Source: Patescibacteria group bacterium
GTDB lineage: Bacteria > Patescibacteriota > Patescibacteriia > Buchananbacterales > UBA6539
Assembly (NCBI GenBank): GCA_028688055.1
Contig: JAQTYZ010000002.1
Span: 132,256 to 196,255 of the forward strand
Direction: 5' to 3'
DNA: 64,000 nucleotides
Numbering within the stretch: position 1 is the stretch's first letter; each line of letters begins with the position of its first letter. Under the pieces are notes generated by a model. It was not told the DNA's origin, searched no databases, and saw nothing but the letters and a program-made list of their open reading frames with translations. Position numbers and translations under genes: made by a program. Below are positions 31,126 through 32,935 of the stretch, piece after piece.

Positions 31126-31213
31126 ACACCTCCCCGAAATAGGGGAGATGTCTTCTCCTGAAACTACGACCTTAATCGCAGGTTCAGGTCGAGATGGGGA
31201 CGATGCTAGAATT
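31126..31213 (-). repeat. repeat copy 1 (tRNA-His trailer/terminator-like element with degenerate tRNA 3'-end remnant)
   Basis: ~64 nt is identical to copy 3 (ataacaaaaaacacctccccgaaataggggagatgtcttctcctgaaactacgaccttaatcgcaggttcaggt). Its tail is similar to copy 2. On the minus strand it forms a CTCCCC-tatttc-GGGGAG hairpin + T-run. Confidence 0.7.
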
Positions 31214-31445
31214 AGATTATATAATGTCATTGAAGGATTAAAATTAATTTTTAGTGGTTTAAATAATTTTCATATTCCAAATTTTTTAGATAATGTAACA
31301 CCATGAAAGTCATTTTTAACGTCTATTGTTGACAATAATAAATTTTTATGTTAGTGTCGAACGTTAACTGATTGGCAGTTAACTCTCACATACGCGTGGG
31401 AATATCCAGCAGCTCGGATGAGCTCAAAGAACGGAGGTTCAGGAT

Positions 31446-31868
31446 ATGACTCTTCAAGGGATGAGGCGAATGTTGCGGGATTTTCCCTGGCTATGGGCTT
31501 TGGGAAGCTACTGGGACTGCAAAAAAGTGGAGATGACTGTTTTCTCTCACTGGGAGGATGTTCATCTACTGTTTCACAAAGCAGTCTTTGAGCTAACCAG
31601 GGGCGTTAAGGTGTTCATTCAGGTTACAACTTCTGACAGCGTTGAACGGTTAATCCCTGTAAAGGACGATGAACCGCCCCGCTGGCCTGAGTGTGAAGCC
31701 AGAAACTATCAGCGTGCAATACTAGACGCAGCACCTCAAGATTCCCAAATCAACTACTTGGTTATCGTTCGCACCTCACGTTATAAGGGGATTAGGAATT
31801 TCGAAATTTGGAGGCCGCCGTCTGGCTACCATTGTTTTCGAAAGTATGCCGAGAAAAATCCTTACTGA
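31446..31868 (+). CDS. hypothetical protein (GC-rich island E, between repeat copies 1 and 2)
   Basis: 140 aa, ~50% GC. GGAGG SD 7 nt upstream. Confidence 0.4.
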   Translation: MTLQGMRRMLRDFPWLWALGSYWDCKKVEMTVFSHWEDVHLLFHKAVFELTRGVKVFIQVTTSDSVERLIPVKDDEPPRWPECEARNYQRAILDAAPQDSQINYLVIVRTSRYKGIRNFEIWRPPSGYHCFRKYAEKNPY

Positions 31869-31912
31869 CCAACCGAGGTTTAGCCCACCTCCAAAAAACG
31901 GGCTTCTTTTTT

Positions 31913-32010
31913 ATACAAAAAACACCCCCGACGAAATATCGGGGATGTCTTCTCCTGGAGCTATGATTTACGTCACAGGTCCAGGTCAAGGAGGGGACGA
32001 CGTTAGAACC
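31913..32010 (-). repeat. repeat copy 2 (diverged)
   Basis: acaaaaaacacccccgacgaaatatcggggatgtcttctcctgg...caggtccaggtcaaggaggggacgacgttagaacc. On the minus strand it retains a GGTTCTAAC T-loop-like remnant plus the terminator hairpin. Ends exactly at the tpiA-homologue stop. Confidence 0.6.
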
Positions 32011-32849
32011 TATTTATTTAAAGCTAGTAAAGAATTAAAAGTCTTTTTTACTTCTACTAATTCTGTTGCGACTGGAGAAAGATAAACTTCCATTATATTC
32101 CCATTAAAATTATTTATAACCTTTAAAAATTTTGAATAAAACTCCTTAAGTTCATAAGCTTTCCAGTTCAATACTAAAACGCCATTTTTTTTATTTTGCG
32201 TGGCATGTTGAATTTCTAATCCGATTTTTTTAACCCAATCCGTAGTAGTTCCCGCTGAGCCTAGAATTAGACCATTAACATTGTCTGAGCACATAATTTC
32301 CTTACTCCTTTCAGGAGATGAACTACCGCCATATATTATTCTTAATTTTTTTTCTGTATCATTACCATATTTCGTTTTTATCAAAGTCCTCAGGAATAGG
32401 CACATACTGTTTATTTGAGGAGCTTGTGGGGGAGCAACATTATTTTTTCCGCTACCGCGTGTGCCCCAACCCGGTTCGTATCCAAAGACTGTTTTTTTAG
32501 CAGTTTCTTTGTTTATGTTGTGTAGTACACATAAAAATTTATTTTTTAATTTGTTTTTCATTTTGTTTATTTCATTTGTGCTACTTTTACCCCAACCCTT
32601 TTTTAAGTCATCCCAATCTTCTCCAATTAAGACAACATTATCGGATAAACCGTATTTTAAAGCAGCTTGCCATTTTTCATTAACTATTTTTGGATCGTCT
32701 TTAAATTCAGAGTGACCAAGAATTATGCCGGTAGCCCCAGCTTTTTTTAAATGATAAAATCCTATATCTCCGGTTCTGGCAAATTGGTGCTTACCATCGC
32801 CTAAATATATATTTACGTTTTGAGCTATTAAAAATACATTTTGTTTCAT
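32010..32849 (-). CDS. tpiA: triosephosphate isomerase homologue, apparently circularly permuted
   Basis: 279 aa. Residues 1-215 contain AQN, FARTGD (GAFTGE), GHSE (His95), VLIGE (Glu165), YEPGWGTRGSGK (YEPVWAIGTGK), RIIYGGSS and GLILGSAG in canonical order. The final ~60 aa (VLVLNWKAYELKEF...VYLSPVATELVEV) match the TIM N-terminal beta1-alpha1-beta2 segment (GNWKMN...IAPP), including catalytic Lys. A TATAAT box lies 13 nt before the ATG. Confidence 0.75.
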   Translation of the reverse strand: MKQNVFLIAQNVNIYLGDGKHQFARTGDIGFYHLKKAGATGIILGHSEFKDDPKIVNEKWQAALKYGLSDNVVLIGEDWDDLKKGWGKSSTNEINKMKNKLKNKFLCVLHNINKETAKKTVFGYEPGWGTRGSGKNNVAPPQAPQINSMCLFLRTLIKTKYGNDTEKKLRIIYGGSSSPERSKEIMCSDNVNGLILGSAGTTTDWVKKIGLEIQHATQNKKNGVLVLNWKAYELKEFYSKFLKVINNFNGNIMEVYLSPVATELVEVKKTFNSLLALNK

Positions 32850-32861
32850 ACTGTATTTATT

Positions 32862-32935
32862 ATAACAAAAAACACCTCCCCGAAATAGGGGAGATGTCTT
32901 CTCCTGAAACTACGACCTTAATCGCAGGTTCAGGT
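32862..32935 (-). repeat. repeat copy 3 = native tRNA-His trailer + intrinsic terminator
   Basis: Identical to copy 1. Abuts the tRNA-His 3' end. On the minus strand: hairpin CTCCCCTATTTCGGGGAG + GTGTTTTTTGTT. Confidence 0.7.

Follow-up and report, generated by a model that had tools for sequence, protein, structure and literature searches.

Genomes of Patescibacteria, also known as the candidate phyla radiation (CPR), are about 1 Mb in size, and the ways in which these bacteria acquire genes are poorly understood. Here, we analyzed a locus in one such bacterium at which three unrelated genes lie in a row directly behind a tRNA-His gene. The locus is part of a 64,000-nt stretch of contig JAQTYZ010000002.1 (hereafter “the window”, to which all coordinates refer). 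An initial annotation of this DNA had noticed three copies of a repeat here; these copies are the junctions between the three genes behind tRNA-His, and they form direct repeats that all read on the minus strand.

Three single-gene units behind tRNA-His

On the minus strand, the array is ordered tRNA-His / E3-TIM-P2 / E2-ORF140-P1 / E1-CDF-P0 / B′, where E and P are the two modules of the repeat and B′ is a terminator of another type. The tRNA-His(GTG) gene (32933–33005, minus strand; 32932–33005 in ARAGORN; Rfam tRNA 32933–33004, 57 bits) encodes G-1 and has its discriminator C at position 32933; compared to the CCA-encoding tRNA-His genes of relatives, CCA is not encoded, and TGAACC comes next. 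Module E3 (32861–32932, minus strand) continues from the tRNA and is followed by cargo A, a TIM-like gene (32010–32849, minus strand; 279 amino acids) whose last ~13 codons lie inside the cassette-end arm P2 (31984–32050, minus strand; ...GGTTCTAACGTCGTCCCCTCCTTGACC). The second unit comprises E2 (31912–31986, minus strand), cargo B, i.e., the open reading frame (ORF) ORF140 on the opposite strand (31446–31868, plus strand) with its own GGAGG ribosome-binding site, and arm P1 (31187–31253, minus strand; ...ATTCTAGCATCGTCCCCATCTCGACC); P1 and P2 are shared with each other and with other genomes. The third unit starts with E1 (31115–31189, minus strand) and carries as cargo C a CDF transporter gene (29535–30965, minus strand; 476 amino acids; Pfam Cation_efflux 7e-43, ZT_dimer 1e-33). 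It ends in a weaker P-like sequence, P0 (29462–29485, minus strand; GCTAATGTGCCTCCTCCCCCGACC), which has the same GACC end and agrees with ~14 of 24 P consensus positions by eye; P0 was missed by the P profile, and its assignment rests on its position and its junction with B′ (29427–29461, minus strand; CCTATCTAAAAATCGCCTGACCGGCGATTTTTTGG), a CCT followed by an A-run, a GC hairpin, and a T-run. Further along (29185–29414, minus strand), orf57 (29241–29414) and then a degenerate E-like terminator half (29185–29219) are homologous to orf67 and a P′.E′ junction at the distal end of the array in contig L092 (labels L075–L111 denote related loci or contigs). Based on the ORF list and Pfam, the array (29.1–33.0 kb) includes no recombinase gene, its only ORFs being the TIM-like gene, the ORFan ORF140, the CDF gene, and orf57.

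The outer two copies of the repeat, 31115–31189 and 32861–32935, are 100% identical over 75 nt, i.e., the identity noted in the initial annotation holds but extends beyond the 64 nt given there, while the E2 copy (31912–31986) is more diverged, as had also been noted, with ~77–81% identity to E1 and E3. The identity block starts with the terminal 3 nt of tRNA-His (ACC), and the 72-nt trailer E follows the tRNA without a gap. Within the window, a 32-nt core occurs exactly twice (0 expected) and a 14-nt invariant block of E three times (0.17 expected). Copies 1 and 2 share ~65 nt more upstream (the P arm, 31187–31253 and 31984–32050), for a full unit of ~140 nt, and as the P.E junction occurs twice and E three times, the units are bounded by direct repeats. 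The window contains no additional E copy except the degenerate terminator half at 29185–29219, which belongs to the same locus, and both E and P are confined to this locus in the window and in about 40 related loci. Hence, in the sequence covered, E is not a generic repeated terminator akin to repetitive extragenic palindromes, an option that the initial annotation had tied to recurrence of its 64-nt core at many loci.

The RNA of E, read on the tRNA-sense strand, forms a 13-bp hairpin (hairpin 1; CCUGAAC-CUGCGA...UCGUAG-UUUCAGG) and, immediately after it, a 15-bp hairpin ending in U6; the CTCCCC/GGGGAG hairpin and T-run terminator reported earlier are indeed present on the minus strand. Hairpin 1 and the terminator map to 32903–32934 and 32867–32902 in E3 (the latter including the U-run), to 31954–31985 and 31917–31953 in E2, and to 31157–31188 and 31121–31156 in E1. 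Across an alignment of seven distinct E copies from four genomes, 96.9% of the cells were paired versus ~50% with slid partners, and five pairs were changed on both sides, with compensatory changes also distinguishing E2 from E1 and E3. The stem of hairpin 1 is kept by such compensatory changes and its loop is variable, several G.U pairs are invariant across the aligned copies, and the fold z-score was approximately −5 on the sense strand versus approximately −2 on the antisense strand. E is a structured transcript end, namely an intrinsic terminator with an extra hairpin. At gathering thresholds, tRNA was the only Rfam family detected in the window, the E copies yielding sub-threshold matches to the PyrR site (RF00515; 27–31 bits versus 54). 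E plausibly provides the CCA-less tRNA-His with a new trailer and terminator. In addition, an TGTTATAAT box is found at 32859–32867, 9 nt ahead of the TIM ATG, and in three to four of the copies next to the tRNA the U-run is directly followed by a TGnTAnAAT box, 6–9 nt ahead of a start codon without Shine–Dalgarno sequence, a position that suggests leaderless cargo expression from a candidate promoter at the end of E.

Among the cargo genes, the TIM-like protein matches Pfam TIM (8e-29) at profile positions 53–237 only. Its residues 4–205 align to TIM ~59–243, and its residues 224–269 (VLVLNWKAYELKEF...) align weakly to TIM 6–53, including the catalytic N-W-K motif, so that the protein appears to be circularly permuted; we found no publication on such a circularly permuted TIM. 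An exact look-up of the window protein returned no record. The family includes 48 homologues of 265–280 amino acids, with LNWKAYE invariant across its Patescibacteria members, and the window gene is intact, save that its last ~13 codons, encoded by P2, diverge from the family C-terminus. The proposal that both ORF140 and the TIM gene are remnants of elements that lost their integrases is thus borne out as to the lack of a recombinase gene in the array, but not as to decay of the TIM gene, an intact member of a conserved family. The TIM homologues of relatives reside in other neighborhoods (dnaX upstream, NUDIX/deaminase genes downstream), and neither E nor P was found near them (L075–L079 for E). 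As E is absent downstream of the homologues in L075–L079, we rejected E as a TIM 3′ untranslated region (UTR); the upstream part of copy 1 as a remnant of a TIM 3′ end was rejected as well, since other genomes have this arm behind unrelated genes. ORF140 has a GC content of 0.47 versus 0.32 for TIM and is an ORFan, Pfam and family searches returning no family match and only marginal remote ones.

Related loci and the four junctions

Related loci were retrieved via homologues of the neighboring XerA-like recombinase, and E homologues were sought by a pattern scan of metagenome contigs. True E homologues were identified in three metagenome contigs (L080, which is a shorter copy of the L092 contig; L081; and L082), and in L080/L092, L081, and L082, E follows tRNA-His at the identical nucleotide, CACC|TGAACC. 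L081 carries two copies within 1.2 kb, in the order tRNA-His, E, a small membrane-protein gene, a short P-like end, and a second E; in L092, the second E lies 2.4 kb downstream and is preceded by ...CATCTCGTCCCTTCCCAATC. The P core, TCTAACGTCGTCCC...GACC, was found behind varied cargo: TIM and the reversed ORF140 in the window, a 126-aa membrane protein in L082, TerC in L091, and a reversed NYN gene in L095, with a diverged P arm in L080/L092 picked up by the P profile. Overall, E/P modules flank different cargo behind tRNA-His in L081, L082, L091, L092, and L095. Since P keeps a constant orientation whichever way the cargo points, it is not a simple 3′ UTR. Simple terminator duplication, the alternative offered in the initial annotation, also falls short, as it leaves unexplained a P arm that does not depend on how the cargo is oriented. 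Viral contigs searched for P/E motifs, and a phage collection searched with BLAST, returned no matches.

We then considered whether P derives from the tRNA, as the initial annotation had read the tails of copies 1 and 2 as degenerate T-arm/acceptor sequence of tRNA-His. This resemblance was not supported: in local alignments against 3000 shuffles, these tails gave p = 0.86–0.89, the window P tails together (P2, P1, P0) 0.86–1.0, and the other P arms tested 0.24–1.0, versus 3e-4 for an orphan tRNA fragment in L085. A tRNA-His profile hidden Markov model detected an orphan 5′ half in L098 (E 4.6e-7), gave only weak matches to two orphan 3′ fragments in L111 (E 1.2) and to the L085 fragment (E = 17), and matched none of the window P arms at E <= 50; ACC is all that they have in common with tRNA-His. 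We therefore rejected P as a decayed tRNA-His 3′ half on the basis of the shuffle test and the profile. That P could be a very old, diverged partial tRNA is a conjecture; GTGG does occur in two P arms (L082, L091), and P is placed where orphan tRNA fragments sit in L085 and L111. Separately, six P arms have an antisense frame as their sole open frame (MSSP...G.G.DD.R..L....L K..F), with a 12-nt block, GACGACGTTAGA, invariant in four of the six. We rejected an opposite-strand protein gene with its 5′ end in P: the peptide is loosely conserved, but neither the codon-position pattern nor the family searches spoke for such a gene, and none of the fetched loci contains a full-length homologue.

The relatives share a conserved left flank of PNPase, NYN, rpsO, Xer, two tRNA-Arg, and tRNA-His, and the comparison of related genomes called for by the initial annotation revealed that gene content behind tRNA-His differs in each of roughly ten genomes with a readable locus. 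L101 and L102 are 99.9% identical over 7975 nt, i.e., the same species, and diverge exactly after ...CACCCC of tRNA-His. There, the L101 sequence passes into an element with the gene for a 538-aa large serine recombinase directly beside the tRNA; L102 represents the empty site, A followed by B′. This recombinase-bearing element, polymorphic in that species, is carried by L101, L103, L104, and L105, with the same element type in L098/L099, and it uses a point 2 nt further along than the E/P junction. In L111 and L085, orphan tRNA-His 3′ fragments of 17–19 nt occur at the same locus, in L111 each with a ~95-nt arm and flanking a TerC cassette; these loci carry classical remnants, with only the L085 fragment statistically significant (p = 3e-4). 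The TerC cargo has a conserved, structured-looking leader in L091 (8560–8660) and L111 (~2760–2850), for which a riboswitch search yielded no Rfam family at gathering. Five independent short-read contigs with the same recombinase (L086–L090) all end just after the second tRNA-Arg, and therefore assemblies break at the variable tRNA-His site.

Behind the CDF gene, a fourth junction (29485–29427; ...GCTAATGTGCCTCCTCCCCCGACC|CCTATCTAAAAATCGCCTGACCGGCGATTTTTTGG) joins the P-like end to B′, which is a CCA-type terminator. B′ directly follows tRNA-His-CCA in L095 and L102 and follows P in L091, with a looser form in L082 and L092. Among the tRNA-His genes compared, all those without E encode CCA, and none of those with E do. 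Combining the left sides (tRNA ...CACC or P ...GACC) with the right sides (E or CCA-B′), all four combinations, tRNA.E, P.E, P.B′, and tRNA.B′, occur, the pattern expected if they corresponded to attL, attP, attR, and attB, respectively; accordingly labeled, E3 would mark an attL-like junction, E2 and E1 attP-like ones, and P0.B′ the attR side. B′ at 29427–29461 would then be the original CCA-trailer and terminator of tRNA-His, displaced by 3.5 kb. A tRNA-Val gene elsewhere in the window (1652–1762, minus strand) encodes CCA and is followed by a terminator of the same type as B′ (AAAATCGCC-CCAG-CGGCGATTTTTTGG, 1652–1672), apparently the style of terminator native to tRNA operons in this genome. 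Because E-less tRNA-His genes encode CCA with B′ directly behind (L095, L102), tRNA-Val does likewise, and a displaced B′ survives, E3 is probably element-borne and not, as the initial annotation assumed for copy 3, the ancestral tRNA-His trailer. The distal, partly degenerate E behind orf57 in the window and behind orf67 in L092 nevertheless leaves room for E as a native trailer in the common ancestor.

Proposed accretion of cassettes and its alternatives

Given this anatomy, we favor, with moderate confidence, a tandem accretion of recombinase-less cassettes (TIM, ORF140, CDF) by site-specific recombination at the discriminator/CCA boundary of tRNA-His. Specifically, a cassette would consist of a left end E (75 nt), one cargo gene, and a right end P (~65 nt, ending in GACC). 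In circular form, with an attP-like P.E, the cassettes would recombine with the tRNA-His 3′ end (attB = ...CACC|CCA-B′), the crossover falling in or beside ACC, and newer cassettes would enter at the same tRNA end and shift older ones outward, with the recombinase either supplied in trans or lost. The notion of successive integrations at a tRNA 3′ end, already present in the initial annotation, thus gains from the tandem array at the tRNA-His end, the E/P modules in relatives, the four junctions, and the L101/L102 pair, while its premise of tRNA-derived tails does not stand, these being not detectably tRNA-derived. As to the type of enzyme, a core limited to ACC points to a serine recombinase, with its 2-bp overlap, more than to a tyrosine recombinase. 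More speculatively, P.E may be the site of a whole family of miniature recombinase-less cassettes stacked at tRNA-His and mobilized in trans by a co-resident large serine recombinase or the XerA-like protein, forming an integron-like capture platform in ultra-reduced genomes in which each cassette brings its own trailer/terminator and leaderless-gene promoter and even TIM may reside; we consider this extended version doubtful.

Several observations weigh against accretion by site-specific recombination. No recombinase is linked to E/P cassettes, in the window array or elsewhere, and no extrachromosomal or viral contig with a P.E junction was found. The overlap between the attB-like and attP-like sites amounts to 3 nt (ACC) only, which is short for a tyrosine recombinase. 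Cassette left ends are heterogeneous, given that L091 and L095 have P but something other than E beside the tRNA, and in L092, a P.B′ junction lies mid-array and a P.E junction at its end, meaning that the order of events is not simple. No close relatives with and without an E/P cassette between the same flanks were found, direct presence/absence being seen only for the serine-recombinase element, and tRNA-His-CCA-B′ sites were seen only in more distant genomes (L095, L102). The source genome was covered over the 64 kb of the window, and a scan of a genome collection with CCTGRACCTGN{12,24}CAGGAGAAGAC returned 74 matches, all of them chance matches in GC-rich genomes. Finally, E copies are more alike within a genome than between genomes (E1 = E3), which also fits local duplication or gene conversion.

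In the most probable of the alternatives, E and P are anchors of a replacement hotspot behind tRNA-His: alleles would be swapped by homologous recombination, and unequal crossing-over or gene conversion would stack the units, without any site-specific step. Complete identity of E1 and E3 over 75 nt while E2 stands at ~77% would be explained in this way, as would hairpin loops that are shared within a genome and differ between genomes (L081a/b; window copies 1 and 3), the pattern expected under concerted evolution. The lack of a linked recombinase and of a free attP, as well as the occurrence of the same TerC cargo with different right arms in L091 and L111, which suggests modular reshuffling, point in the same direction. 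However, the tRNA.E junction falls at one nucleotide in four genomes, with the encoded CCA removed and the displaced CCA-type trailer kept behind P; junctions of this kind call for an exact, non-homologous event. Both the serine-recombinase element and elements leaving partial tRNA repeats also use this tRNA end. Homologous recombination may well maintain or rearrange the array, but its origin would be left unexplained, and we regard this alternative as rather unlikely.

Next, we considered an integron-like or Xer-driven platform, in which the upstream XerA-like recombinase would insert and excise the cassettes and P.E would act as an attC- or dif-like folded site. The recombinase gene does lie upstream of the two tRNA-Arg genes in every locus retrieved, with tRNA-His following wherever the contig reaches, and the cassettes are single genes without recombinases. 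The variable loop and compensated stem of hairpin 1 would suit a folded site, and inverted 4–5-nt blocks, whose sequence differs by copy, bracket the junction in copies 1 and 2 and in L092b (by eye). Yet the protein looks like a housekeeping one: it has 7960 homologues at E < 1e-60, with 66–100% identity among the 120 best listed, and occurs in cassette-free genomes. It passes the XerA-type model NF040815 (241 versus 220 bits) and fails the integron-integrase model TIGR02249 (138 versus 265, with the match split in two), and gene orientation and distance are unlike intI/attI, ORF140 being reversed with its own ribosome-binding site. No GTTRRRY-type core or dif-like 11-6-11 site was recognized at the junctions, the dif-like dyad being sought by eye in the junction table; on inspection, the outer stem of hairpin 1, CCTGAAC/GTTTCAGG, has no GTTRRRY either. 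The invariant G.U pairs fit the role of an RNA terminator at least as well, and the site is also used by the serine-recombinase element. Taken together, a Xer-driven platform seems improbable.

A cis-regulatory role, with E as a PyrR-like attenuator or leader for the downstream gene or with the repeat encoding a small plus-strand protein (MSSP...), is more improbable still. It would account for PyrR-site matches of 27–31 bits in all three copies, for the layout of two hairpins and then a gene, and for the open plus-strand frame across E and P in copies 1 and 2 (31148–31306, 31945–32085) and in L080 (988–1182), with a similar peptide (..DDVR..L...I.ELKL.F) in five related P arms. But the PyrR scores are far below the gathering threshold of 54 and reflect the hairpin/terminator architecture only, E2, L081b, and L092b have no downstream gene in that orientation, and in the copies next to the tRNA the start codon lies as little as 6–9 nt behind the terminator. 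No family match was obtained for the peptide, its frame in copy 3 is cut off by the tRNA, and both the differences by codon position (58/93/93) and the 33 synonymous versus 126 non-synonymous changes are unlike coding constraint. Lastly, a misjoin of fragments at the 75-nt repeat by the metagenome assembler, conceivable since the source is a metagenome-assembled genome and short-read assemblies often break here, is scarcely credible, as independent JGI and ENA assemblies show the same two-copy array (L092 = L093), L081 has two copies within 1.2 kb, the window proteins are also recorded from Logan assemblies, and the P arms and diverged copy 2 are unlike the product of a repeat-induced chimera.

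Relation to known systems and neighboring features

Loci of this general kind are known. Cis-mobilizable elements (CIMEs; Pavlovic et al. 2004, as reviewed in PMC5704250) keep their end sites, have lost their integration genes, and are stacked in tandem at a tRNA 3′ end by later insertions, and the window array shares this layout of units without integration genes at a tRNA 3′ end. Here, however, the cassettes are tiny (0.8–1.7 kb, one gene each), the separators consist of a non-tRNA P arm and an element-borne trailer instead of partial target copies, and the host is a CPR bacterium without known conjugative machinery. In the tycheposons and tRNA-seeded islands of Prochlorococcus, each new integration at a given tRNA moves the earlier elements deeper into the island, which becomes hypervariable through its degenerate remnants and cargo units (bioRxiv 10.1101/2020.12.28.424599); ~40-nt partial tRNA copies act as separators, and intact elements carry tyrosine recombinases (bioRxiv 10.1101/2020.12.28.424599). 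Both hosts have streamlined genomes and both systems stack at one tRNA, but in the window the separators share only ACC with the tRNA, insertion is at the discriminator/CCA boundary, and the sole recombinase-bearing element seen at the tRNA-His site encodes a large serine recombinase.

Integron cassettes are similarly single-gene and recombinase-free, with imperfect-palindrome separators of ~100–140 nt and a tyrosine recombinase gene nearby. They differ in that the recombinase here fails the integrase model, no attC core consensus is present, cassette orientation is mixed, and the invariant G.U pairs and U-run of the palindrome point to an RNA terminator. Compared to the intrinsic terminators of tRNA trailers, E is alike in having a GC-rich 15-bp hairpin and U6 directly after the tRNA, and differs in its extra conserved 13-bp hairpin, in replacing the encoded CCA, and in recurring with the P arm in the array and in other genomes. 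Overall, the kind of locus is known from tRNA-seeded islands, accretion, CIMEs, and tycheposons, and what is distinct here is the single-gene cassettes, the cross-genome P and E modules, the insertion at the discriminator base, and the host phylum; the literature searched yielded no description of such a locus in this phylum.

With its conserved left flank, an insertion point defined to the nucleotide, and recognizable, searchable cassette ends P and E, the locus constitutes a comparable hotspot. If the cassettes are mobile, they would contribute to gene flux in these organisms and supply pairs of att sites and recombinases. Even a conservative reading explains the assembly breaks after the tRNA-Arg genes and the presence of an essential-looking TIM gene in a variable region, and it illustrates how a target tRNA can have its CCA and terminator replaced by an inserted element.

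Upstream of the array (33012–34886, minus strand) lie the XerA-like tyrosine recombinase gene (33966–34886), tRNA-Arg(tct) (33752–33828), tRNA-Arg(ccg) (33662–33733), and an HNH gene (33012–33479). The latter, which encodes a 155-aa HNH endonuclease and separates tRNA-Arg(ccg) from tRNA-His only in this genome, marks a second variable point in the tRNA cluster: the corresponding spot measures 17 nt in L080/L092 and holds a methyltransferase-like ORF, identified by eye, in L082. Degenerate tRNA pieces also occur between the true tRNA genes of relatives (L095 5995–6255; L111 1950–2225 and 2329–2353; L098 8508–8541), comprising tRNA-Arg-like copies split by GC-rich hairpins and the orphan 5′ tRNA-His half of L098 (E 4.6e-7). 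The whole tRNA cluster, and not just its 3′ end, seems prone to rearrangement. Adjoining the distal end of the array, GC-richer opposite-strand ORFs occupy 26516–29119 (plus strand), one weakly CsoSCA-like and one weakly similar to the DapB C-terminal domain, in a window of patchy composition. Elsewhere, a long AT-rich block (44000–52000; GC 0.28–0.35) displays a strong positive GC skew, unlike the rest of the window.

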